Source of the DNA: a virus
Direction: 5' to 3' (one strand)
IMG/VR virus record: IMGVR_UViG_3300048080_000202
Location: 1,859 to 65,858 of that record
Length of the DNA stretch: 64,000 nucleotides
Shown here one piece after another: positions 3,876 through 37,519 of the stretch (positions are counted from its first letter, which is position 1; every line of letters begins with the position of its first letter). The notes beneath the pieces were generated by a model, which saw only the letters and a list, made by a program, of their open reading frames with translations, did not search any database and had not been told where the DNA came from. Position numbers and translations under genes: made by a program.

Positions 3876-4826
3876 TTACGCGCTTGTGACAAACACGATG
3901 TGCTGCTCGGCATCGGCTGCGAAGTTCCAGACGATCTTGAAGCCCAGAAGGGCATACCAAGCCATTGCCATGTCTCGACCGAAATCTTGCGGAACTTTCA
4001 TGCGGATCTCTTCGGGAATACAAACTCCCTCGTAGACCGAATCAGCGCCGAAGAAAACAGCCTGACCACGGAGAGAACTCAAGCCAATGGTGTTGGAAAG
4101 AAAGCCGGTTTCCTGTATGAAGCGAACTCCGTAGAAGGTTCCGACTTCGCCAGTGAAGATATTCTTGGCGAATTCGCCGGTGTATTTGCTGATGTCAATC
4201 CATCCACCAGTTCCACTATCTGCGTGCATTCCACTCATGGCGGATACAGAAGCTACGCAAATGTAGTTCTGGCCGTCGTATTTGGGGACATTACGCTTTA
4301 GCAAGAAATCAACCACTGAGCGAACATTTGCAGCGGTGAGATCGGCGGAGGCAGTAGCGGTAGCAGTACCGTTGGTGGTGAAGATGACAGAGTTAGTCGC
4401 AGACATTACTGCGATGTAGTCGGTGGCCGCGAACTGTGCGCCTGCGGCGGACTCAAGAACCTTGACCTGATCGTCACGGAGTTTCATTTCCGTTACGCTG
4501 TCAATATCGAATTGTCCGAGGGCGTCGAGTTTTTGGGTATAAGGGACACTCAAACCGAATTCGGTAATCGTGCCGGTTCCCTGGTTGGTTACGTAGTTGG
4601 TTTCGGGGATGGTGGCTGTTTCGACCAGTGTGCCGCCTTGAGTAGCGACATCACCGGACTTGTCAAACAACCAGGTATCACCCCGTTTCTTCCCGACCTG
4701 TTCTTTAACGTCAATGAACTGACGAAGCTTAAAGTAAGGCTGTGCTTTGTGACGCAGCCGTTCGGTAAGATAAGGTACCGCCCAGTTACCACCCAAGGTT
4801 GATGTGGACCATAATTGTCCAGGCAT
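3876..4826 (-). CDS. Major capsid protein (N4-gp56-like family)
   Basis: 316 aa; 'FRQFIDVKE...G..GDT..F.K', 'GEVGTFYGVRFIQE' and 'DFGRDMAMAWYALLGFK' are typical of this capsid family; follows the scaffold gene. Confidence 0.9.
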   Translation of the reverse strand: MPGQLWSTSTLGGNWAVPYLTERLRHKAQPYFKLRQFIDVKEQVGKKRGDTWLFDKSGDVATQGGTLVETATIPETNYVTNQGTGTITEFGLSVPYTQKLDALGQFDIDSVTEMKLRDDQVKVLESAAGAQFAATDYIAVMSATNSVIFTTNGTATATASADLTAANVRSVVDFLLKRNVPKYDGQNYICVASVSAMSGMHADSGTGGWIDISKYTGEFAKNIFTGEVGTFYGVRFIQETGFLSNTIGLSSLRGQAVFFGADSVYEGVCIPEEIRMKVPQDFGRDMAMAWYALLGFKIVWNFAADAEQHIVFVTSA

Positions 4827-6011: not shown

Positions 6012-7195
6012 AGACGGATTCCAATGGAGAGGGAGGTTTTTTGATATTGGACAGGGGTGCCAGCGGTGCCGATACGACCTCGGGCAGAGATGGTGCGGTC
6101 GGTGGTAGCGGTTATGCGTGCGCGGGCGAGGATAGTGCGGTCGGCTTGGAGGGTGATGCTGGCTTTGGAGGTGACAGTGCGGTCAGTAGTTACTGTTATT
6201 CTCGCCAAAGACAGAATGGTTTTGTCAACTGTGGCTGTGATCCGAGCGAGGGCGGGGATTGTTCGATCAGTAGTTACTGTAATACGTGCTCGGGATTGGA
6301 TAGTCTGATCGGTAGTGGCTGTGATCCGAGCACGCGCTGTGATGGTTTGGTCTGTGACGGCCCCCGTGACGATGTTTGCTTTGGCAGTGATGACTTGATC
6401 AGTGGTTACTGTGATTCGGGCTTTGGCTGTAACAGTTTGATCCGTTGTGCCAGCGATTCTTGCCCTGGCGGTGATGGTTTGATCTGTGGTATCTTGTGCT
6501 CGGATCTCCAACATCACCCCACGCCAAGCGACGTTGCCTGTCCAAGTGGCGCTGGACAGGTCTTCCCAGGCGTCGTTTCGGAATTGGCATTCATGCCCCG
6601 TGGCGGGGCTGTTGTAGTTTCCGTCGGCCCCGGCGGTTTCGGTCCAATTGGTTCGTGGGGTGGTGGCTTCGTTGGCAAGGTGGACGAAGAAGGCGAGTGG
6701 GCGGTTGGAGGGTTTTTGAGAGGTGGTGGCGGTGCAGGTGCCAGAGGTTGCGGCGGCGGTTCCGAAGGTGGGATTTTGGACAACCGCATTAGCTGCATCG
6801 GTGCCGCCCCAGCCGGTAACCTCAAATTCAGTAATGCCTGCGCCGGTACGGTTGGAACCCCAAGTGCCGATGACAGCGGCGGTGGATGGGGTTCCCCCGG
6901 CGTCCGCCACCCATACCGAGAGAATATGAGTGGTGCTGAGAAGATTGGCGGCGAGGGTGAGTTTGGTGAAGGCTACGCCATGGCCATTGACAGCGGTGGG
7001 ATCGGTGGGACTGGACGCAAGACTGGCGTTGATGAAAGCGACAAGGAGGGAGTTGGCAGCTGGGGTGTAGGTGGGAGCGCAGGTGTAAGTGACGGCAGCG
7101 CCGGTGCTGTAGATACTCGATCGGTATGTAGTGGTAATAGCCATCGAGGGGGCTATCCGAGCCCGAGCCGTGATTCGCTGTCGCCGTGTTGCCAC
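6008..7195 (-). CDS. Virion protein with ten 14-aa tandem repeats
   Basis: Beta-rich N-terminal domain followed by repeats of consensus TxTTD(Q/R)TIxA(R/K)ARI. Confidence 0.7.
   Translation of the reverse strand: MATRRQRITARARIAPSMAITTTYRSSIYSTGAAVTYTCAPTYTPAANSLLVAFINASLASSPTDPTAVNGHGVAFTKLTLAANLLSTTHILSVWVADAGGTPSTAAVIGTWGSNRTGAGITEFEVTGWGGTDAANAVVQNPTFGTAAATSGTCTATTSQKPSNRPLAFFVHLANEATTPRTNWTETAGADGNYNSPATGHECQFRNDAWEDLSSATWTGNVAWRGVMLEIRAQDTTDQTITARARIAGTTDQTVTAKARITVTTDQVITAKANIVTGAVTDQTITARARITATTDQTIQSRARITVTTDRTIPALARITATVDKTILSLARITVTTDRTVTSKASITLQADRTILARARITATTDRTISARGRIGTAGTPVQYQKTSLSIGIRL
6071..6499 (-). repeat. Coding tandem repeat, about 42 nt unit x10, degenerate at DNA level
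   Basis: Repeats are visible in the translation (e.g. TVTTDRTIPALARI, TATVDKTILSLARI). Confidence 0.85.
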
Positions 7196-7198
7196 ATG

Positions 7199-7585
7199 TT
7201 ACTTGAGGACAATGAGTTGTTGGTGATTTTTCCCTTCAACAGTAGTTTGCCAGCCGAAGCAGTGTTCGATGGTGTGGGAGAGTTCACTCCAGCCAGCATT
7301 AAGGGAGTGGGTGTGGCGACGAAAGTAGATGAGACGAAAGGGGGAGGTTTCGGGGGTGTCGGTCCAGAATGGCACGCCGTCAATTTCGAAGTGTCCGTCC
7401 CGAAGATCCACGAGATACTTGTGGCCTTCGCCCTCAAGTTGAAACACCTCCACCTCATCGTAGCGTTTCATAACATCGAAGAATGCGCTGCGAAGGGGGT
7501 CGGTGAGGGAGGTGTCGAGGAGGGTTTGGAAATACTCAGAACCGTCTGAGTATCTTACGCCAAAGAGATACTTTAGGGGTGTCAT
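7199..7585 (-). CDS. Hypothetical phage protein
   Basis: 128 aa ORF in operon context with 'LIYFRRH...CFGWQ' motif. Confidence 0.6.
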   Translation of the reverse strand: MTPLKYLFGVRYSDGSEYFQTLLDTSLTDPLRSAFFDVMKRYDEVEVFQLEGEGHKYLVDLRDGHFEIDGVPFWTDTPETSPFRLIYFRRHTHSLNAGWSELSHTIEHCFGWQTTVEGKNHQQLIVLK

Positions 7586-7760
7586 TGGATTGAGGGGGAT
7601 CGATGGGATTCGATTGAGGTTGGGGATTATAGTCCCAAAGGATAGAACCTGGGAATTTCAGGAAGCGTCCACAAGCACACGTTGCTACCATTTCGCCATT
7701 GGCGTCAACGGAGACTTCTCGTTCGGTGGGTTCACCGCAGAGGGCACAGAATAGTTTCAT
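7536..7760 (-). CDS. Small zinc-ribbon protein
   Basis: 'CALCG...CACG' Cys pairs; tight operon spacing. Confidence 0.5.
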   Translation of the reverse strand: MKLFCALCGEPTEREVSVDANGEMVATCACGRFLKFPGSILWDYNPQPQSNPIDPPQSNDTPKVSLWRKILRRF

Positions 7761-7762
7761 AT

Positions 7763-8290
7763 CTAATTCTCATTATAACGGAGTGTATAAGTGATATTGG
7801 CAGTATCACCAGCGGCGGGTGTGGTGGTTTGGAGTTGATGGGTGAGATAGTTTGTGAAGCAAGGGTTGGTGGTCATTGAGGCGGCTTTGCCAGCGCTCGC
7901 GGGGCCGGTGGCACCAAACCACACTGCACGCCCGGAGGTGATGGCGATTGCGGTGGTTTGATCAAAGGTGAGATTGGCGTTGGCGGAGGCAGAAGGAGTG
8001 GCATACAGCAATCGATCGGCATCGACAGTCATTGCGGGCTGACCTTTGGCTACTAATCCAGTTCCAAGAGCGGTGGTAGTGTGCGCCCAAAGGCCGGTGG
8101 AGATTTGATTGAAGGTGCCGGAGAAATGACCAAATAGCCATTTGTCGAAGGAGTTTGCGCCTGCGGTGATGGGGGAGGCACTATAGGCGGTGGTGGAATC
8201 GTCGATACCCTTCCAATTGCTTTCTGTGCGGGCGTGGGTGATAGTTTCACCAGCACCGTTGGATTCGTCGAATTCGAATGTTGCGGCCAT
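7763..8290 (-). CDS. Putative structural protein
   Basis: Likely start ATG 8290 (MAATFEFDESNGAGET...), right after the upstream stop; Thr/Ala-rich, ending 'TLRYNEN'. Confidence 0.6.
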   Translation of the reverse strand: MAATFEFDESNGAGETITHARTESNWKGIDDSTTAYSASPITAGANSFDKWLFGHFSGTFNQISTGLWAHTTTALGTGLVAKGQPAMTVDADRLLYATPSASANANLTFDQTTAIAITSGRAVWFGATGPASAGKAASMTTNPCFTNYLTHQLQTTTPAAGDTANITYTLRYNEN

Positions 8291-8292
8291 GA

Positions 8293-8553
8293 TTATTTTA
8301 TTCCTATAATTGAAGTAGCGGTGGTGCCGGTGGACCAAACGCGGACACATCGGATGGGGTGGACAAGTCCTGCGGCGAGACTTACAAAGGTCACTGTGTC
8401 ACCATCATATAGGGTGACCTTGAGATCCCCGGAACCCCCAACATAGACACCACGGTAGGCGAACGGGAGATCGGCGGAATCATTGGGGGTGACGGCAAAA
8501 GCCCCGGTGGCGGGGCGGTCATAGGCGGTAGTGGAGGCGTCGGGATAGGGCAT
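8293..8553 (-). CDS. Head spike base protein (GTA Rcc01079-like)
   Basis: 'AFAVTPND...YVGGSGDLKV...PIRCVRVWSTGTTAT' matches the family as I recall it. Confidence 0.8.
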   Translation of the reverse strand: MPYPDASTTAYDRPATGAFAVTPNDSADLPFAYRGVYVGGSGDLKVTLYDGDTVTFVSLAAGLVHPIRCVRVWSTGTTATSIIGIK

Positions 8554-12236: not shown

Positions 12237-13100
12237 TCACTTTCTCCACCATTTTGACATATTGGGGAGATTGATGTTTCGGACCTTGAAGGTTGGCTGG
12301 GAGTTGAAGAAGTACTTGGCGTCATCCAAGGAGTGATTGTCCTTGTCTTGCATTTGTTCGCGATAGGACTTGGTGAGGGCTTGGCGCTCGGACATGGACA
12401 CATAGACTGTGGTTTCGAACTCCCGGATTTGATTCGGGCAGCAATCGAAGATGCAGAATAGGGGGTCTTTTTTGTCGAGGTCCCGCCAGAGGTCGTGGAT
12501 TTTGGCGATGAATGCTTGTTCATCTTGAATTCCCCTGATCATCTTGCGGACCCCGCAGTCCCACAGGAGTTGGTGAATAGAGGTGACGTTACCCTCGCGG
12601 GTTTGTTGGGTGGGGGACCAAAGGTTGGGATCGGCGGCGACATACTTGAGTTGATGCCAGTATGGGCACCCTAGGAGCTTCTGGGAGAACTCGGAGATGT
12701 TTGTACAGGGCTCGAAGAGTTCCCATATGCTGTAGATCACCTTGTCGAGCATGGTATAGACGTGGAAGCTGGAGGGATTTCGGGCACCGAAGTCGAATCC
12801 CCCCCAACAGGGGTGATTGCCAGGGATAGTGGGGTAGGGGTCCTTCACCACGATCTTGTCTTTGTTTGGCCCGAGTTCTGGGAAGATCTTCTCCCCCATC
12901 ATGGCAAAGTATTCGATTTCATACTCACGTGCCCATTTGGCGGGGGAGAGCCCGGCGCGGGCTTCCTTGATCCACTCGGGGTCACGTTTGCTGGGGTTTG
13001 CTGTGAAGTGTAATGTGCAAACGCAAAATTGATTCTTTGGATTCTTCCGAATCGTAAGACCCGTGGATTGGTGGAGGATTTCCGGGGCGGGGCTGCTCAT
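12237..13100 (-). CDS. terL: Terminase large subunit, C-terminal nuclease part
   Basis: 'HFTANPSKRDPEW...WAREYEIEY', RNase H-fold 'GGFDFGARNPSS' and 'DKDNHSLDDAKY'; no Walker motifs; directly upstream of the portal gene. Confidence 0.85.
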   Translation of the reverse strand: MSSPAPEILHQSTGLTIRKNPKNQFCVCTLHFTANPSKRDPEWIKEARAGLSPAKWAREYEIEYFAMMGEKIFPELGPNKDKIVVKDPYPTIPGNHPCWGGFDFGARNPSSFHVYTMLDKVIYSIWELFEPCTNISEFSQKLLGCPYWHQLKYVAADPNLWSPTQQTREGNVTSIHQLLWDCGVRKMIRGIQDEQAFIAKIHDLWRDLDKKDPLFCIFDCCPNQIREFETTVYVSMSERQALTKSYREQMQDKDNHSLDDAKYFFNSQPTFKVRNINLPNMSKWWRK

Positions 13101-13210
13101 CTATCACTCATATATTGTTGGCACTTGCACTTCTTACAAGCCTTCATGTTTTCATGATCGCTAGGATAGTGTTTACAAATGCAGTTTTGAGTATAAGTGT
13201 TTTTAGTCAC
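13097..13210 (-). CDS. 37-aa Cys/His zinc-finger microprotein
   Basis: Manual translation MTKNTYTQNCICKHYPSDHENMKACKKCKCQQYMSDR; its stop overlaps the TerL-nuclease ATG (ATGA). Confidence 0.6.
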   Translation of the reverse strand: MTKNTYTQNCICKHYPSDHENMKACKKCKCQQYMSDR

Positions 13211-14021
13211 CCAAGCACCTCTCCATAATCACCTTGAGATTCTCCTCCGTAACCTTCTCCCCGCCCTCAACCTCAAGTTGATTCTTACCATCAGGTGGAG
13301 TGCATATCATGTTGAAACTCGCTTGGGGGCCAAAGACGTTGGTGGGGTTTTTGAAAAAGTTATCTTCTGAGAATAGATTGGCGATGTGCCAGAAGCAGGT
13401 GTAGTCCAGGGAGGTGAGGGCTTGCCACAACGCTATTGCCTTTTTCTTGCGGTCATTCTCCACAAACAGAATCGGCTTGTGTTTGGAAATGGTTTCCGTT
13501 CCCCCCTTTAACACTTCCATTTCCATCCCTTCCACATCAATCTTTGCGAAACGAAGCGGGAGGGGGAATTCCAGATCATCAAGACGAACTTGTGGGATGA
13601 GGAGATTTTTCCATGCTCCTTTCTCTCCAACCTCTACACGCCCGTAGTTATACTGTTGATCATATCCCTCGAAGTCTGGGATCGAGACCATGGATTTCTC
13701 CGCTCCCACCGCGACATTCATCACCCTGACACTCACGTTGTTGATTGTGGCGTTGGCGGCGATCAATCGAGCGAAGTCGGGCTGAGGTTCGAAAGCCCAC
13801 ACCCTGCCCTCACGCCCCACACTGTGGGCCATGGGAATTGTTAGGCTTCCGAGATTCGCGCCGATATCGAGGGCGAGATCTCCGGGGCGGAGGATCTGGG
13901 AGAAGAAATTTACCTCGGGTTCGGAGTATTCACCGTAGGTGCGCAGGCTGCGACCGACGATATCGTCGGATGAGGGGAAAAACATGTGGCCGTGACGGCA
14001 CTTCAAGAGTTCGAGTTTCAT
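13203..14021 (-). CDS. FkbM-family SAM methyltransferase
   Basis: 'LDIGANLG', 'AFEPQP' and 'FAKIDVEGMEMEVLKG'. Confidence 0.9.
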   Translation of the reverse strand: MKLELLKCRHGHMFFPSSDDIVGRSLRTYGEYSEPEVNFFSQILRPGDLALDIGANLGSLTIPMAHSVGREGRVWAFEPQPDFARLIAANATINNVSVRVMNVAVGAEKSMVSIPDFEGYDQQYNYGRVEVGEKGAWKNLLIPQVRLDDLEFPLPLRFAKIDVEGMEMEVLKGGTETISKHKPILFVENDRKKKAIALWQALTSLDYTCFWHIANLFSEDNFFKNPTNVFGPQASFNMICTPPDGKNQLEVEGGEKVTEENLKVIMERCLGD

Positions 14022-14494
14022 AGTTTAACCAGCTTGCATCGACGAATAATTTCAGATGTGGAGAGACTTTTCTTCGGGCGATGGACAAAGAACTTTGGGA
14101 TTTTGAAACGACTGTCGTGCTCAAGATGATCTTCGCCTTGAATGCGGAAGTCAGGCTTCAACCCCGCTATTAACAACCTCATGTCTTCTTCCGCTGTGAT
14201 CTCCACCACAAAGTGGACATCCAGAAACCCCAATGCCGCTGCACGCTCAGAGAAGCACATCACCGGCCTGCCGACTCCTTTGGAGTCATTGATCTTGCGG
14301 TCGCTGTCGAGGGCTACCACCACAGTTTTCGCCCGAGCTTGCGCCTGGCGGATACACCGCATGTGGCCGGGATGGAGGAGATCGAAGGCTCCGTTGAGGA
14401 GACACACTGGATGTGCTAGCCCTACGGGCCAGAGATCTGTGGGACGCATCCACTCAGTCTGGGGCTCTTGTTCTACCCTGATAACTTTAGACAC
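14018..14494 (-). CDS. rfaE2: Heptose-1-phosphate adenylyltransferase-like (HldE domain II, cytidylyltransferase fold)
   Basis: 'NGAFDLLHPGH' (HxGH), 'VALDSDRKINDSKGVGRPV' and C-terminal 'LSTSEII'. Confidence 0.8.
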   Translation of the reverse strand: MSKVIRVEQEPQTEWMRPTDLWPVGLAHPVCLLNGAFDLLHPGHMRCIRQAQARAKTVVVALDSDRKINDSKGVGRPVMCFSERAAALGFLDVHFVVEITAEEDMRLLIAGLKPDFRIQGEDHLEHDSRFKIPKFFVHRPKKSLSTSEIIRRCKLVKL

Positions 14495-14603
14495 GCGGTT
14501 TCACAGCCATTTCTCCCCAACAACTGTCGTAGTGCTTCTGTGCGTGCTCCCACTTCACGAATTCTTTGCAATAGACACAGGTGAAACCGTAGCAATTAGT
14601 CAT
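14487..14603 (-). CDS. 38-aa Cys/His microprotein
   Basis: MTNCYGFTCVYCKEFVKWEHAQKHYDSCWGEMAVKPRV; the start overlaps the HNH stop. Confidence 0.5.
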   Translation of the reverse strand: MTNCYGFTCVYCKEFVKWEHAQKHYDSCWGEMAVKPRV

Positions 14604-15042
14604 GGTTAGCCGTATACGGTGATTTCTTATGCGGACAAATTCCTTTATTTGCGTGCTTGCCCCAGTTGCAGTTTGCACACAGAACTTGGAATCCTGACGG
14701 AAAATTATTTTTGATTAACCAACTGCACATATGTTTGGTAGAACGGGTTTTTCCTTTTAACTGTCTTCGATGTTCTGCCCCATTATTATTGATGTGATCA
14801 ATTGAAAGAAACTTGTAGTTGTCCTCACCACAACAAGCACAGAATGCTCCACCGTATGCTTCGTATACTATTCTCTTACGGTTTTCGTAACTTTTCGCGT
14901 GTTTCTCATTATCATAAACCACGCACTCAATACATCGGCAGGTACTTGGTCCATTGAGGGGTATGCCACAATCTACACACAAACCCGCTTCTTTTCTAGC
15001 AGCGCGCCGTTTCTTCATCCATTTAGTACATCTATCAGGCAT
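14596..15042 (-). CDS. HNH endonuclease
   Basis: 'CACCGE...LSIDHINNNG...FQVLCANCNWGK' with an intact HNH His. Confidence 0.85.
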   Translation of the reverse strand: MPDRCTKWMKKRRAARKEAGLCVDCGIPLNGPSTCRCIECVVYDNEKHAKSYENRKRIVYEAYGGAFCACCGEDNYKFLSIDHINNNGAEHRRQLKGKTRSTKHMCSWLIKNNFPSGFQVLCANCNWGKHANKGICPHKKSPYTANHD

Positions 15043-15046
15043 ACAA

Positions 15047-15908
15047 TTATCCCTCTATAATCGTATCTGTTGAGTCACGACAGACATGGTAAAAAAAGCC
15101 CAAATTTGCTGTACTAATCATTGTACACCTACCACCATTTTGTATAGATGGTTTAATAGCAGCAAAGGCTTCTCCCGCTTCTATTTGGAAAGCAGCTTCG
15201 TCAAAGAAACACCGCAGATGGGTGATATTGACGAATTTGGTCGGGGCCTTGAGGAAATCCAAGGATCTGACTGCTATTCGCAACACTTAATACCCCACTC
15301 CGGCTTTGTCCGAGAGTGTATTCTGTCTTAGTATAGTTTCGTAAAAACTTAGGTTGATGCTTTGCTATGAAGTCTGCTCGTTCAACCAGTTCTGCTGTTT
15401 TGGTAGAATCGTCTGACTGGAAAATTACTTGCCGTCCTTCATGATACATGACTTCCCAAGCGTAAAGTGTCACCACCAGCCACGTGGCCATCATGTCGCG
15501 GCTCTTCTCCAGTGCCAGAAGGGGATACTTCAGCCATGCTTCAATAATGGGAATCATGTAATCATAGAGTGGAAACGCTCGGGTACTCGGAAGCTCCAAG
15601 AAACTACTCCGGAGAAGTGAGGTAGGGGCATCCAGAATATCGTGACGACGAAGAAGGTGATCTCCCAGCTTGCTGAAGGTGTGGGTGTTGTTGTCGTTGC
15701 AGGTTTTGCACACATACATTGGATGGGGGTCTTGGGTGTAGACATAGGGGATTCCCGCGTGCCGTGAGGCATCGAGCCAATAGAAGATGTCATCTTGGCA
15801 TTTTTCCCATTCGGATTTGCCGAGGAGCCGAAGGAACCCAGCGGCTTTGCCCTTCGGGACTTTGGCGATGGACTCTAGAAGCTCTTTGGAGATGGAGATA
15901 TCAGTCAT
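15047..15908 (-). CDS. terL: Terminase large subunit ATPase part, needing a +1 frameshift at 15200-15206 (235 + 51 aa)
   Basis: Frame 1 has the degenerate Walker A 'LEKSRDMMATW' and ends 'HPSAVFL*'. The +1 frame continues 'DEAAFQ...MISTAN' (Walker B and coupling motif). Confidence 0.8.
15200..15215 (-). other. prfB-type +1 programmed frameshift cassette GCGGTG-TTT-CTT-TGA-C
   Basis: Exact CTT TGA C slippery/stop site with an SD-like hexamer 3 nt upstream, the same geometry as prfB. Confidence 0.7.
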
Positions 15909-16276
15909 TAGAATCGGCGGGATTCCTCAAGGCGTTCTACATCGTCATTTTTGTGATGTGTGGAAAATTCCACCATCAATGCAGAAGTGGCTTCGAAGTT
16001 GCTGAACCTATGCCAGCTTCCCGCAGGGATATCAACACAATCCTTCGCCCATCCCCGAAGAATATGAGTCTCTCCTTCAAGTTCCACTTGAATCAATCCT
16101 TCGAGACAGAGGAAGGTTTCGGACTTGAATATATGACGATGAAGGCTACTTTGGGACATCGGGAGGATTTCAAACAACTTCCCACAATAATCTTTGTTAA
16201 CGACGTAAAATTCAGTTCCCCAAATTTTACGTTCGATCTTTCGGCCTGCTTCGACGTATGATTTTTCGATATTCAT
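15908..16276 (-). CDS. Cupin-domain protein (sugar isomerase/epimerase-like)
   Basis: 'SSLHRHIFKSETF' and 'DIPAGSWHRF' cupin motifs; follows the heptose kinase gene. Confidence 0.8.
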   Translation of the reverse strand: MNIEKSYVEAGRKIERKIWGTEFYVVNKDYCGKLFEILPMSQSSLHRHIFKSETFLCLEGLIQVELEGETHILRGWAKDCVDIPAGSWHRFSNFEATSALMVEFSTHHKNDDVERLEESRRF

Positions 16277-17009
16277 TCAATTCCTTTATTGTACATGTCG
16301 CTGTCATAGGCTTTCCCACCACGACAGCAGACGCTAGGGATGCGAACTCCATAGCATCACTGCGAGGCCAGCGAACAGCAAACCCAGCGCTAAAAGTGTC
16401 TCCAGCACCGGATACCGATACAGGCGACATATTAAAAGCCTCCACATGTTCGATTTCCTTTCCAAACTCCAACAAACTCGCTCCATGCTCCCCCATTGTC
16501 ACCACACAGCGTTCGAAGAGATCATATTGGCTCTTGAACTCCGCGTATTCCTTGACATTCGGAAAGATCGTGGTGGTCCATCCGAGATACGGTGTGGGAT
16601 CACACTTTGTGTCCACGAATGTGGGGAGGTTCATTTCATATAACGCCAGCAAGACCTCTGGGGTGATGGAGCCCTTGGCATAGTCGGCAATCACAATTCG
16701 ATCGACTTTTTGTTTCTTCATCCATTCCAGATCAAACGGCGGACACGAATCATATTCATCCCAACGAGCAATCTGGTGGCCATCGGCGATCAAACGATTC
16801 TTGATTGGCCCCGTGTGTTCCCATTCCCACCAGGGTTCCACGGAGGCTCCGAGGGCGAGAATATTCATCCCAACATTCCCCGCTCCACCGGGGATTCTCT
16901 TCACATCGTTGATAAGGACAATGGGGATTGGGGATTCGGGGGAGAGCCTAGTGGCGTGGCCAAGGAAGTATAGATCTTGGATTCGGTCACCGATAACTAG
17001 GAATTTCAT
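16227..17009 (-). CDS. rfaE1: Heptose-7-phosphate kinase-like (HldE domain I, PfkB family)
   Basis: 'LVIGD...D.Y..G.ATRLSPESPIP...GGAGNV', 'IADYAKG' and 'SGAGDTF'. Confidence 0.9.
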   Translation of the reverse strand: MKFLVIGDRIQDLYFLGHATRLSPESPIPIVLINDVKRIPGGAGNVGMNILALGASVEPWWEWEHTGPIKNRLIADGHQIARWDEYDSCPPFDLEWMKKQKVDRIVIADYAKGSITPEVLLALYEMNLPTFVDTKCDPTPYLGWTTTIFPNVKEYAEFKSQYDLFERCVVTMGEHGASLLEFGKEIEHVEAFNMSPVSVSGAGDTFSAGFAVRWPRSDAMEFASLASAVVVGKPMTATCTIKELNEYRKIIRRSRPKDRT

Positions 17010-33534: not shown

Positions 33535-34227
33535 ATGAGCATTCAAATCATTGGCCCACAAAGCTCCGCCTCACGGGCTCTCCTTCAGGAAATGTGCGAT
33601 GGTCTGTCGGGTGATCTTCGAGTTGTATGGGGGAGGGAGATGGATAAGTGGACGCAGTTGAAAATCTTATTTTCAAAAGCAGTTCCTATTCCTGTATGTA
33701 CTGACGATTTTGAAAGCGCAAGATTGTGGGTCGATCGTGGAGTAATCACATGGGGACGAAAAATCAATCATACTCAAGGGCGAGATATTGCTACAAATCC
33801 AGCATCAAACAAATGGCGTAAATGTGATTATTGGGTGGAAGTAATTCAGGATGTGAAAGATGAATGGCGAATTCATGTGATGGATGGATTGGTGATTCAT
33901 TGTGAGAGGAAGGTTCATATTGATCTAATGGGGGCAATGGGTTTTAGTTGTAGACATAGACTACAGCCTAACTTATGTGGTGAATGTGGAGCGATTCGCT
34001 CCCATCGTAACAGTTGGCGCATGATTCGTGACCGGAAACCCAGTTTGCGGCTAATGAAATTAGCGAAGAATGCTGTTGCTGCACTGGAATGGGACCTCGG
34101 GGCAGTAGATATTTTGGAGAAATCTGATGGGGCTGGGGCTGTGCTTGAAGTTAATAGTCGCCCGGGATTGGATTCGAGGACGGCAAGGCAGTATGTGAAA
34201 GGGATTCAGAGACGGATACAAAGATGA
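33535..34227 (+). CDS. ATP-grasp domain protein (RimK/YheC-like)
   Basis: 'EWRIHV', 'RSHRNSW' and 'LGAVDIL...VLEVNSRPG'. Confidence 0.8.
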   Translation: MSIQIIGPQSSASRALLQEMCDGLSGDLRVVWGREMDKWTQLKILFSKAVPIPVCTDDFESARLWVDRGVITWGRKINHTQGRDIATNPASNKWRKCDYWVEVIQDVKDEWRIHVMDGLVIHCERKVHIDLMGAMGFSCRHRLQPNLCGECGAIRSHRNSWRMIRDRKPSLRLMKLAKNAVAALEWDLGAVDILEKSDGAGAVLEVNSRPGLDSRTARQYVKGIQRRIQR

Positions 34228-34922
34228 AATCTCACGGTGAGCACTCACGTTGCAACGCAGGATTTTGGACCCCCTTTAACTACACCTCCGGTCTTATGAT
34301 GGGGGTGGAGCTTGAGGTGGAGGCTCCGACTAACTCTAATGTGCTCCTAGATATAGACTGCGCCATTGAATCTGGTACCTTCCCGGCGGTTGTGAGTGAG
34401 AGTGATTCAAGTTTGAACTATGGTATAGAGATCATCTCACATCCAATGGATATCCAAGGCCACTACCGTGTGTGGCCGGATATTCTCAAACTCTTGCGGA
34501 AGAAAAAAATGCAAGGAGATTTAGCGGAAACCGCTGGATTGCATGTGACATTTGAAAGTATTCCGTTAACTGCAAGGGCGAATCAAATACTCAAAGAGCA
34601 TCAAGGGTTGATTTGCTTAATTGCGGGGAGAGAATATAGTGTATATTGTAGTTGGAGTCGGATTTATCAAGAACACGTCAGTATTTATAAGGAAAGTGTG
34701 CTTGCAGACCGAAACCACAAACCCATTCTTGATCAATCCCATTCTGTTTACGAATTTCGGCCATCTCGAAGTAGTGTCAAAGATCAAAAATTCTTTGCGA
34801 GACTGGAGATGGCACAAGCATTTCAAGAATGGGCAATAAGAGAGGAGCCTGTGAAGGAGTGGCCGGAGCACATGAGGACGTATGAGAATTTGGGAGCAGA
34901 GATGAGGAGATTGGGAGTATGA
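34224..34922 (+). CDS. Amidoligase-like protein (paralog of 27504-28220)
   Basis: 'MGVELEVE', 'DSSLNYGIEIISHPM', 'AGLHV' and 'YEFRP'. Confidence 0.7.
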   Translation: MKSHGEHSRCNAGFWTPFNYTSGLMMGVELEVEAPTNSNVLLDIDCAIESGTFPAVVSESDSSLNYGIEIISHPMDIQGHYRVWPDILKLLRKKKMQGDLAETAGLHVTFESIPLTARANQILKEHQGLICLIAGREYSVYCSWSRIYQEHVSIYKESVLADRNHKPILDQSHSVYEFRPSRSSVKDQKFFARLEMAQAFQEWAIREEPVKEWPEHMRTYENLGAEMRRLGV

Positions 34923-35300
34923 CCAAAGTAACCTTTTGTAGCTGTATTCATCCCGGCCAGGATAAAATCTATGGTCTCGGGCTGCGCCTGCACAATTCTT
35001 CGAAGAACAAACAAAGCATCAAACCGAATTGGAGGTGTACGGTATGTGGGAGGGTGAAAGAATGCTAGGAACAACAAAACGTGAACGCCGCTCACGTGCC
35101 TCTAAACATTCCACCGCCGCTCTTTATAAGCCCACCAAATTTGTAGTATCATGTCCATACTGCCAAAACAAGTGGGAAGGAAAGATAAAGGGTATGCAAG
35201 ACGGGATGCGGAGGATGTGTTGAGACTAGCCGCTGAATGTTGCGGACTGTTTATTGATTTAGAATAATTAGATATTCACTTTCAAATTTGGGACAGTAGA

Positions 35301-36632
35301 ATGAAGCACACAATCACACCACAGAACAAGAAATTTAGCTGCCGAGCTTGTGGTTTGTTTCATCATTATAATTATCGACAACCCTCAATAGTATGGCGGG
35401 CGTGTGGGTACTGTGGACACAATCACAACCCCAATCGCGCACATTATTGTTCGCAGTGTCAGAAATTTCATCCTACACGCAAGACTTTGGTTGGGCCAAG
35501 GTTTCTATGTCCAAAACTTCAGCAGTGTGCGAGATGTGGGAAAGCGGGAGTTAAGTGTAAAACTTGCCGCCGTTGTATTGCCTATTGTGGATGTGCGTGC
35601 AGAAGTTGTTTCTCTTGCCACCAAAAAACAGCGAGTCTTTGCCCAAATTGTCGAACGTGCCAAGAGCGTTGCTGTCTATGTGGCGGGAGAATTGGGCGGG
35701 AAAATGCTGTTTGGCAACAGAGTTTGGTGACAGTTAAAGAAGGAAAAATAGTAAACTCTCTTATTGATCAGGGTCTCGGTCGAACTATTGGACTTGAGAT
35801 TGAGTTGTCGGAGTTTGGGACGATCAAGAAATGGAAGGGTATAAGATATACCATTGCTCATGACGTGAGTGTAAAACCAAGTGGAGAGGAAATAGTGTTA
35901 GCTCCCACTTGTGGGAGGGAGTTTCAAGAAAACGTTTATAAACTTGGTACAGCTTTGATATATTCACAGTGTGAGGTTAATGAAACTTGTGGACTTCATG
36001 TTCATGTGGATGCAAAGGATTTCGGGTGGTGGGAAATTCGGAAACTTTTAATAATGTGGTTGGGGATTGAAAAGGAAATGTTTCGTTATTTTGTAGACAA
36101 TAAAGATAGGATTAAGGATCGATTCTGTCTTCCATATCGTGAGAGTGGGGGACACCCCTGTGCTTTTATAATTCCTAATTTTGAAACTGATCTTACCTCT
36201 CGATCTATCCCTATTTCCACCATTAAATCTATGTGGATTTCTATGTTTTATGACGGAAAGTTTATACCTCACCCCTCCGGAAAACCAGAGCTTATCCAAG
36301 GATATGAGGAAGGTTATAAATCTCATAAGAAAAATAAATATTCTCGCCCCCGCTATTATGCTCTCAACATCCACTCCTGGCTATATCGAGGGACAGTGGA
36401 GTTCCGTCTTAAAGAAGGTACCGTGAATGGAGTAGAGATCCGAGATTGGGCATTATTGTGTGGATGGATTGTGGAGATGGTGAATAGAATTACTTTTGAG
36501 CAAGCGTTACAAGTGTATAATAAGGGTATCGTAGCCCTTCGGGATCTCACATCCACATCGGAGTTTTCTATTAAAGACACTTTCATTCTCCCAGAGAGTG
36601 TGAGAAACTACATTACTAAAAGGATATCATAG
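35301..36632 (+). CDS. Amidoligase with Cys-rich N-terminal region
   Basis: Many CxxC pairs, then 'IGLEIE', 'TCGLHVHVD', 'RYYALN' and 'GTVEFRL..GT'. Confidence 0.85.
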   Translation: MKHTITPQNKKFSCRACGLFHHYNYRQPSIVWRACGYCGHNHNPNRAHYCSQCQKFHPTRKTLVGPRFLCPKLQQCARCGKAGVKCKTCRRCIAYCGCACRSCFSCHQKTASLCPNCRTCQERCCLCGGRIGRENAVWQQSLVTVKEGKIVNSLIDQGLGRTIGLEIELSEFGTIKKWKGIRYTIAHDVSVKPSGEEIVLAPTCGREFQENVYKLGTALIYSQCEVNETCGLHVHVDAKDFGWWEIRKLLIMWLGIEKEMFRYFVDNKDRIKDRFCLPYRESGGHPCAFIIPNFETDLTSRSIPISTIKSMWISMFYDGKFIPHPSGKPELIQGYEEGYKSHKKNKYSRPRYYALNIHSWLYRGTVEFRLKEGTVNGVEIRDWALLCGWIVEMVNRITFEQALQVYNKGIVALRDLTSTSEFSIKDTFILPESVRNYITKRIS

Positions 36633-36634
36633 TT

Positions 36635-37519
36635 ATGTGTGGAATCTTTTGTCTCGCCCCCCAAAACGCTCGAACAATCACTATGGCCCCATACCTAGCG
36701 TGGGAGATTGAAGGTCGTGGAAAGGATAGTTGGGGAGCGACAAATGGAGTGCATATTCATAGAGAATTGGGACCAATCACAGATAGTTTCAAATTCTTTT
36801 CACAATGGGACAATGCTTTGTATCATACTCGGCAAGCATCCACGGGGGCGGTAGTGTTGGAAAATTCTCACCCATTTTATGCGAAGGGAGATAAGGGGCG
36901 GGTTGTAGGGGTACATAACGGAGTCGTATCAAATCATGTCGAATTGAACAAAGATAATCACCGATCTTGCAGTGTGGATTCTCAACACATTTTCATGCAT
37001 CTTGCAGAAGGGAGGGATCTTGGGGAGTTGAGTGCTTGGGGAGTAGCAGTTTGGTTCATAAATAATCAAGAGGATGTTCATTTTATCAAGTTCAGTTCTA
37101 CAGCAGACTGGTATGTTGGGGAGTTAACATGCCATCCTGGGGAATTTGTGATGTGTTCATATAAGGAACCTCTTAGACGTGCGGCAAAAATGAATGGATT
37201 AGGAGAAGTGGAGTATTACAAGATTAACCCGGGTTATGAATATATTATTCGAAACGGGAAGATTTTGCAGGGGCAGGAGATTTATAAATACCGACCCCCA
37301 GTAATGGTTGCACACAATAATGACAGCGCTTTCGGTCATGTTTATACTGGGGTTCATAATAGTTCTTGGGAGACATGCACAAACTGCCAAAATCACTATA
37401 TTGATGCTACCAAGGATCTTGTGTGTTCTGACTGCTTCAATGCTCTCACCAATGTAAATGGAGATATTCCTCCCACAGTTTGGAGAAAAAATGGGCCGAC
37501 CCAAGAAGTCAGAGTATAA
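36635..37519 (+). CDS. Class II glutamine amidotransferase
   Basis: N-terminal 'MCGIF', 'RGKDSWG', 'HTRQAS.G...ENSHPF', 'HNGVV' and 'VDSQ'. Confidence 0.9.
   Translation: MCGIFCLAPQNARTITMAPYLAWEIEGRGKDSWGATNGVHIHRELGPITDSFKFFSQWDNALYHTRQASTGAVVLENSHPFYAKGDKGRVVGVHNGVVSNHVELNKDNHRSCSVDSQHIFMHLAEGRDLGELSAWGVAVWFINNQEDVHFIKFSSTADWYVGELTCHPGEFVMCSYKEPLRRAAKMNGLGEVEYYKINPGYEYIIRNGKILQGQEIYKYRPPVMVAHNNDSAFGHVYTGVHNSSWETCTNCQNHYIDATKDLVCSDCFNALTNVNGDIPPTVWRKNGPTQEVRV

Follow-up and report, generated by a model that had tools for sequence, protein, structure and literature searches.

A terminase gene that is interrupted by a stop codon one codon ahead of its Walker B motif, and resumes in the +1 frame, raises the question of how, if at all, the uncultured sediment phage carrying it makes its packaging ATPase. 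The gene lies on the minus strand of a stretch of 64,000 nucleotides, hereinafter called the window, which is part of a 75,304-nt IMG/VR record rated complete by CheckV. At the break, window positions 15215-15200 (minus strand) read GCG GTG TTT CTT TGA C. The CUU UGA C of prfB, the gene for release factor 2 (RF2), is the best-characterized bacterial +1 shift site, and the initial annotation of the window, made from the letters alone, proposed a programmed frameshift of this type that would couple DNA packaging to the RF2 status of the host.

The two frames of the terminase ATPase

The terminase large subunit (TerL) is encoded in the following segments of the window.

15201..15908, minus strand: zero-frame part of the TerL ATPase, codons 1-235 plus TGA; phrog_5989 (terminase large subunit), 5.5e-9
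15200..15209, minus strand: candidate shift site, with one base more than in every relative
15047..15200, minus strand: +1-frame part of the TerL ATPase, codons 236-286 (DEAAF...STAN...IIEG) plus TAA; phrog_2 positions 353-416
12237..13100, minus strand: separate gene for the TerL nuclease domain; phrog_2 positions 421-594

The zero-frame ORF (15908..15201, minus strand, 235 aa) encompasses N-terminal helices, a C2H2-like beta-beta-alpha insert, a deviant Walker A motif, KSRDMMAT, and the Walker B strand, AVFL, and has the C-terminus ...QYHPSAVFL, followed by TGA, so that this frame ends one codon ahead of Walker B. From the shift site, the +1 frame is open up to a TAA at 15049-15047 and encodes DEAAFQIEAG...MISTAN...IIEG; beyond DEAAF, it includes 46 more codons, each aligned with the family. 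The fused product of 286 residues, which was built by reading TGAC as a single step, has 297 homologues of about 275-300 residues, aligned at 95-100% coverage in one open frame. The Walker B signature (hhhhDE) and the coupling motif are present solely in this +1-shifted product, and neither D236 nor E237 varies in two alignments, one of 19 and the other of 52 family members. A profile of 19 members matches T4 gp17 with E of 2e-7, such that SAVFL-DE aligns on the gp17 Walker B (D236/E237 on D255/E256), KSRDMMAT on the gp17 Walker A SRQLGKT, and S(S/T)AN on the gp17 TTT coupling motif. Thus, most of what the initial annotation described at this site was borne out, namely, the minus-strand sequence itself, the frame break one codon short of Walker B, the prediction that a +1 slip at CTT would restore SAVFL-DEAAF, in a product collinear with every homologue, the coupling motif in MISTAN and the identity of the shift heptamer to that of prfB.

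Structural modeling is consistent with these alignments. When the nearest relative was modeled with AF2 (pLDDT 92.2), the strand formed by residues 232-236 ends at D236, and a Foldseek search with this model retrieved the gp17 ATPase domain as the best match (3e-10), followed by other TerL ATPases, which indicates that the product of the window gene has the ASCE ATPase fold of TerL. Both pieces are classified as terminase large subunit in PHROGs, and the gene can be described as a stand-alone T4-gp17-type TerL ATPase. Matches among GenBank phages are T4-like TerL proteins, with at most 22-23% identity to the ATPase. For the purpose of annotation, the 235-aa ORF and the 79-aa ORF that follows it (GTG at 15286, +1 frame) are one ATPase gene.

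The same two ORFs could, in principle, yield two polypeptides that form a split ATPase, with the GGAG located 11 nt before the GTG serving the separate start. We consider this very improbable: the N-terminal 26 residues of the 79-aa ORF come from out-of-frame sequence and show no homology, the cut would fall within the Walker B strand, short proteins of this kind are absent from the records, and a search for separately called downstream ATPase fragments in the relatives produced no candidates. The same low probability applies to a variant in which the ribosome slips at UUU_C to give SAVFFDE. In that case, tRNA-Phe would pair perfectly with UUC in the +1 frame, but the ribosome would have no reason to pause on UUU, given that CUU, with 27.5%, is used more than any other Leu codon. 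Two further routes across the break were rejected. A sense reading of TGA is incompatible with its use as the stop of 57 of the 124 ORFs, and readthrough does not give back DEAAF; for transcriptional slippage, the T runs are just 3 long.

The Walker A sequence KSRDMMAT (window 15483-15506, minus strand; residues 135-142) is shared across the family, with Met and Ala in place of gp17 G165 and K166. The Lys just ahead of the Walker A Ser (K135) is invariant in the family and, judging by the alignment, may stand in for the Walker A lysine; this deviant P-loop resembles KSARVGYS of lambda gpA. Separately, in the N-terminal part of the ATPase (residues 67-89; window 15642-15710, minus strand), C67, C70 and H84 are invariant and H89 is present in at least 90% of the members; these residues sit on a predicted beta-hairpin and helix (strands 57-59 and 64-67; helix 78-89), and the segment is predicted to be a C2H2 zinc-finger-like insert.

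All homologues of the ATPase end about 50 residues past Walker B. The nearest relative (locus L001) likewise has a separate nuclease gene, which shares 79% identity with that of the window, and the split of TerL into an ATPase of ~285 aa and a nuclease of ~290 aa is family-wide (window 12237-17009; L001, L023 and other loci), a point of practical importance for annotation in this phage family. The recurring gene order in related loci is PfkB kinase, cupin, ATPase, (HNH), cytidylyltransferase, (FkbM), nuclease, portal, that is, sugar-nucleotide genes (PfkB kinase, cupin, cytidylyltransferase and FkbM methyltransferase) are interleaved with both TerL genes. A search for a second TerL in the phage found none. 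As a separate observation, the portal gene of several relatives (L009, at 6124-8382, L010, L012, L018, L022 and L026) matches in two pieces that are 200-420 nt apart, with almost no query residues between them, which suggests, on the strength of these alignments, an insert near residue 170-180 (an intein, an intron or an extra domain).

The extra base and its phylogenetic distribution

All sampled words of positions 14700-15700 are present in one public run, a sediment metagenome that is probably the source of the record. The Logan contig of that run (74,155 nt, word depth 26.6) matches the window over positions 14200-16200 with 0 differing letters and 0 gaps. The extra T is not peculiar to one assembler; the Logan contig, however, probably derives from the same reads and thus is not an independent sample, and minority alleles are not visible in contigs. 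The genome has 124 ORFs and is 96% coding, and, when the ORFs of the relatives were compared by tblastn with ~10 kb around terL, the two-frame pattern was detected at terL alone. A candidate second frameshift at window position 3876 turned out to be the stop of the major capsid gene, followed by the ribosome-binding site and start of the next gene.

A sequencing or assembly artefact, in which a systematic insertion error added a T to a true TTT CTT GAC, is in our view hardly probable. Both assemblies probably come from the same reads, there is a T3 run on either side of the site, no sequencing platform is recorded, and no independent sample among the public runs searched contains the sequence. 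Against these considerations, the results of two assemblers are identical over 2 kb, at depth 26.6, the T runs are short, no other frame break occurs in the ~10 kb around terL of a genome with such a high coding density, and the chance of an error making the heptamer is only ~0.1%.

Comparison with the relatives bears directly on the origin of the extra base. None of the 63 distinct site sequences from 102 related loci contains it, all 63 being in frame, and there is no frame change in the ATPase gene among the 102 loci. In L077, the site is TTT CTT GAC, identical to the window sequence minus one T, so that the event can be described as the duplication of one T in an in-frame Phe-Leu-Asp; in the nearest relative (86% protein identity), the site is GGG ATT TTT TTG GAC, one base shorter than in the window. 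A degenerate pattern with one extra base between the His-Pro and Asp-Glu codons found 0 loci in IMG/VR and 0 in JGI metagenomes, whereas the in-frame control pattern found 19 IMG/VR loci. One locus, L046, in which the match seemed to end at residue 236, was considered as a second case of a shift and proved to be in frame. Given the lack of conservation and of any other copy in IMG/VR or JGI metagenomes, nothing shows that the site is selected or programmed, and the latter part of the original proposal was not upheld, the close homologues being in frame and devoid of the cassette. From the sequences compared, this unconserved single occurrence gives the impression of a mutation that the phage tolerates rather than of an evolved switch, and it is not evidence of a new regulatory principle.

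Downstream of the site, pN relative to the nearest relative is 0.07 in codons 236-268, and P269, which is conserved in at least 90% of the family, is replaced by Leu in the window ATPase. Dating of the T event by pN/pS against the nearest relative was uninformative because synonymous sites are saturated (pS 0.74-0.88).

The immediate neighbor of the ATPase gene was considered for a possible link with the extra T.

14596..15042, minus strand: HNH endonuclease gene; phrog_2255, 4.4e-8

This gene starts 5 nt past the ATPase stop, ~160 nt from the shift site, and is absent from the nearest relative. HNH homologues adjoin the ATPase gene in 10 related loci (L023, L029, L038, L039, L055-L057, L059, L080 and L083). 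A homologue at the same position as in the window is present in 7 loci, all in frame, and no shared signature was found at the shift site in the HNH-bearing loci. A link between the HNH gene and the extra T was therefore rejected as not seen in these 7 relatives, and, because the HNH-bearing loci are all in frame, a protective insert like that of T4 mobA/gene 60 is not supported in the family. The positions of the HNH genes vary among the relatives, including downstream of the ATPase gene, between the cupin and ATPase genes, and upstream of PfkB, and L059 has two HNH copies; such presence or absence at differing sites, as judged from gene order, fits the pattern of a free-standing homing endonuclease.

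Genes for a family A DNA polymerase, primase, exonuclease, Sak4 and RNA ligase are located in the other arm of the genome, and no integrase was detected among the 25 larger ORFs scanned. With replication genes present and no integrase seen, a decaying prophage is unlikely, and a terL-null allele could hardly persist as the majority; apart from terL, this is apparently an intact, virulent 75-kb phage. In the early arm, ATP-grasp (RimK-like), amidoligase and glutamine amidotransferase-like genes are clustered (window 33535-37519). Matches in genome collections are only phage-like contigs (L106 and L107) in MAGs labelled Thaumarchaeota archaeon (63.6 kb contig) and Bryobacteraceae bacterium, and at least the contig in the Thaumarchaeota MAG is probably a mis-binned phage genome.

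Context of the candidate shift site and the chance of the heptamer

The explanation that we favor, and to which we assign about an even chance, is that one T was duplicated recently and only in this lineage, and that peptidyl-tRNA-Leu makes up for it by slipping +1 at UUU CUU UGA C. Under this scenario, the ancestral in-frame TTT CTT GAC, which encodes the Phe-Leu-Asp at the end of the Walker B strand, would have become TTT CTT TGA C. The ribosome would pause with the weak stop UGA-C in the A site, and the peptidyl-tRNA-Leu on CUU would re-pair with UUU one base on, a slip that the weakly held E-site tRNA-Phe on UUU would favor. GAC GAA would be read next, yielding the normal 286-residue ATPase (SAVFL-DEAAF) with no aberrant residue, whereas terminating ribosomes would release a 235-residue fragment without Walker B. 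Because there is no Shine-Dalgarno (SD) stimulator, the shifted fraction would probably amount to a few percent, falling as RF2 activity rises, and we infer that this would be a sufficient yield of the ATPase.

The local sequence provides for such a slip. [quoted passage not shown] The codons with the fastest E-site tRNA release are UAU, UUA, UUG and UUU, and in a reporter with the RF2 site, frameshifting is inversely related to E-site pairing, increasing as the pairing weakens (PMC2377451). Two candidate stimulatory elements upstream of the site were considered.

15210..15215, minus strand: GCGGTG, proposed SD-like stimulator; not supported
15225..15286, minus strand: predicted hairpin; -21.8 kcal/mol, z -2.5, matched by 0 of 200 shuffles

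The hexamer, which the initial annotation took for an SD-like element, does not stand out: the best anti-SD pairing is -5.6 kcal/mol (4 bp, GGUG), whereas the corresponding region of E. coli prfB reaches -10.7, and among 14-mers drawn at random from the window, 20% pair equally well. This weakens the case for a compensated slip, given that, with an SD 3 nt upstream, CUUUGA shifts at ~50% in E. coli and SD mutations nearly abolish prfB shifting (PMC10798248). In F. johnsoniae, where ribosomes are unable to use SD sequences, shifting at CUUUGA is ~7%, and the prfB SD has been lost in many clades (PMC10798248). The predicted hairpin, which came from one of two segments folded, is absent from the nearest relative (z -0.65), and there is no RNA structure downstream of the site (z -0.40). 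In vitro, +1 shifting at CUUUGA can be enhanced by a stable hairpin upstream (PMC6321510); we treat this one only as a lead because it ends 18 nt upstream of CUU.

Some of the local features could also speak for an evolved programmed frameshift, in which the T would have been selected to throttle the ATPase dose by host RF2 or to destroy the HNH target. The E-site, P-site, A-site and +4 positions are all optimal (PMC2377451), the HNH gene is close by, and the upstream hairpin is lineage-specific. Nevertheless, we consider such a device improbable because 0 of the 63 distinct relatives have the site, the two collection-wide pattern scans came up empty, the 7 loci with an HNH homologue at the same position are all in frame, and the hairpin is 18 nt off, was found in one of two folded segments and has a z of just -2.5. 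Coupling of packaging to RF2, as envisaged in the initial annotation, would follow from any shift at a UGA stop, and nothing suggests that the phage uses it. In the favored reading, at about even odds, the site would be a case of compensatory ('corrective') frameshifting of an indel rather than a conserved programmed device.

How often would such a site arise by chance? The window has no excess of CTTTGAC (11 copies vs 10 expected), only 4 of 3448 single-base insertions in the ATPase gene (0.12%) create CTTTGAC at the break, and a single ORF of the 124 in the genome ends in CTT TGA C, the zero-frame ATPase part itself. A random dead mutation or an error would, for these reasons, seldom look like this, and an indel that survived because it can be skipped would look exactly like the observed site. 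The screen from which the locus comes spans ~250,000 windows and hence is expected to include a few chance CTTTGAC breaks.

These counts, together with the genome context, bear on the alternative that the allele is dead or defective, that is, that the T is real but not usefully rescued and a non-viable variant was assembled. Such an allele could be complemented by co-infecting wild type, be a very recent mutant or come from DNA persisting in sediment. This possibility has to be taken seriously, even if we consider it rather unlikely: the frame is intact in each of the 63 distinct relatives, the site lacks an SD stimulator, P269L lies downstream at a nearly invariant position, minority alleles are hidden in contigs, and chance breaks are expected in a screen of such size. 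It is opposed by the finding that this is the sole allele assembled, at depth 26.6, by the intact appearance of the remaining genome, by the replication genes and the lack of a detected integrase, which do not fit a decaying prophage, and by the ~0.1% chance of a random insertion giving the exact heptamer.

A duplication compensated by slippage is supported by the inferred ancestral TTT CTT GAC in L077, by the failure to find a second TerL, by the rarity of insertions that yield the heptamer, by the presence of the T in the second assembly of a 96% coding genome, and by the lifestyle suggested by the gene complement (own replication genes, no integrase seen), in which a terL-null allele should not reach majority. 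Against it, there is one genome from one sample, the SD-like stimulator is missing, a large excess of truncated ATPase could poison the multimeric motor, the P269 to Leu replacement could hint at relaxed constraint downstream, and a few chance breaks are expected in the screen. If the slip occurs, the RF2 shift cassette would be seen to operate naturally in a gene other than prfB, and one that is essential to a phage, showing that an otherwise lethal indel can survive by landing on a shift-prone sequence; it would also offer a test bed for SD-independent +1 shifting, with a 10-nt site and a clear junction peptide.

Comparison with known recoding systems

The closest parallel at the level of sequence is the autoregulatory +1 shift of prfB (AGGGGG-N3-CUU UGA C), with which the terL site shares the identical heptamer CUU UGA C, a downstream frame in +1, a short and presumably useless zero-frame product and a weak E-site codon (UAU in E. 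coli, UUU in the phage). The terL site differs from prfB in that it lacks an SD-like stimulator and conservation among homologues, lies at codon 235 of 286 rather than near the gene start, and has no feedback logic because its product is not RF2.

Other forms of recoding have been described or proposed in phage genes. The initial annotation knew of no described case in a terminase, and no prfB-type shift in a terminase was found in the literature searched. The terminase of Streptomyces phage Hau3 is a proposed case of translational bypassing (PMC5009743). In both Hau3 and the phage described here, recoding would be needed for a phage terminase; in Hau3, however, the bypassing would involve a UUA codon together with a nascent-peptide signal instead of a one-base slip at a stop. 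In phage T4, gene 60 contains a 50-nt bypass next to the mobA homing endonuclease gene, and the insert protects from mobA (PMC5009743). There, as in the window, a recoding site in an essential phage gene adjoins a free-standing HNH-type endonuclease gene, but in the family of the window phage, carriage of the HNH gene is not associated with the insert, which measures 1 nt as against 50 in gene 60.

Compensatory frameshifting of indels is itself a recognized class, exemplified by G-run indels in herpesvirus thymidine kinase (PMC5009743). The terL site resembles the rescue of thymidine kinase in that a lineage-specific one-base indel in a viral gene would be overcome by low-level slippage at the indel, the unshifted product being useless, and differs in being a stop-driven +1 site with no long homopolymer.
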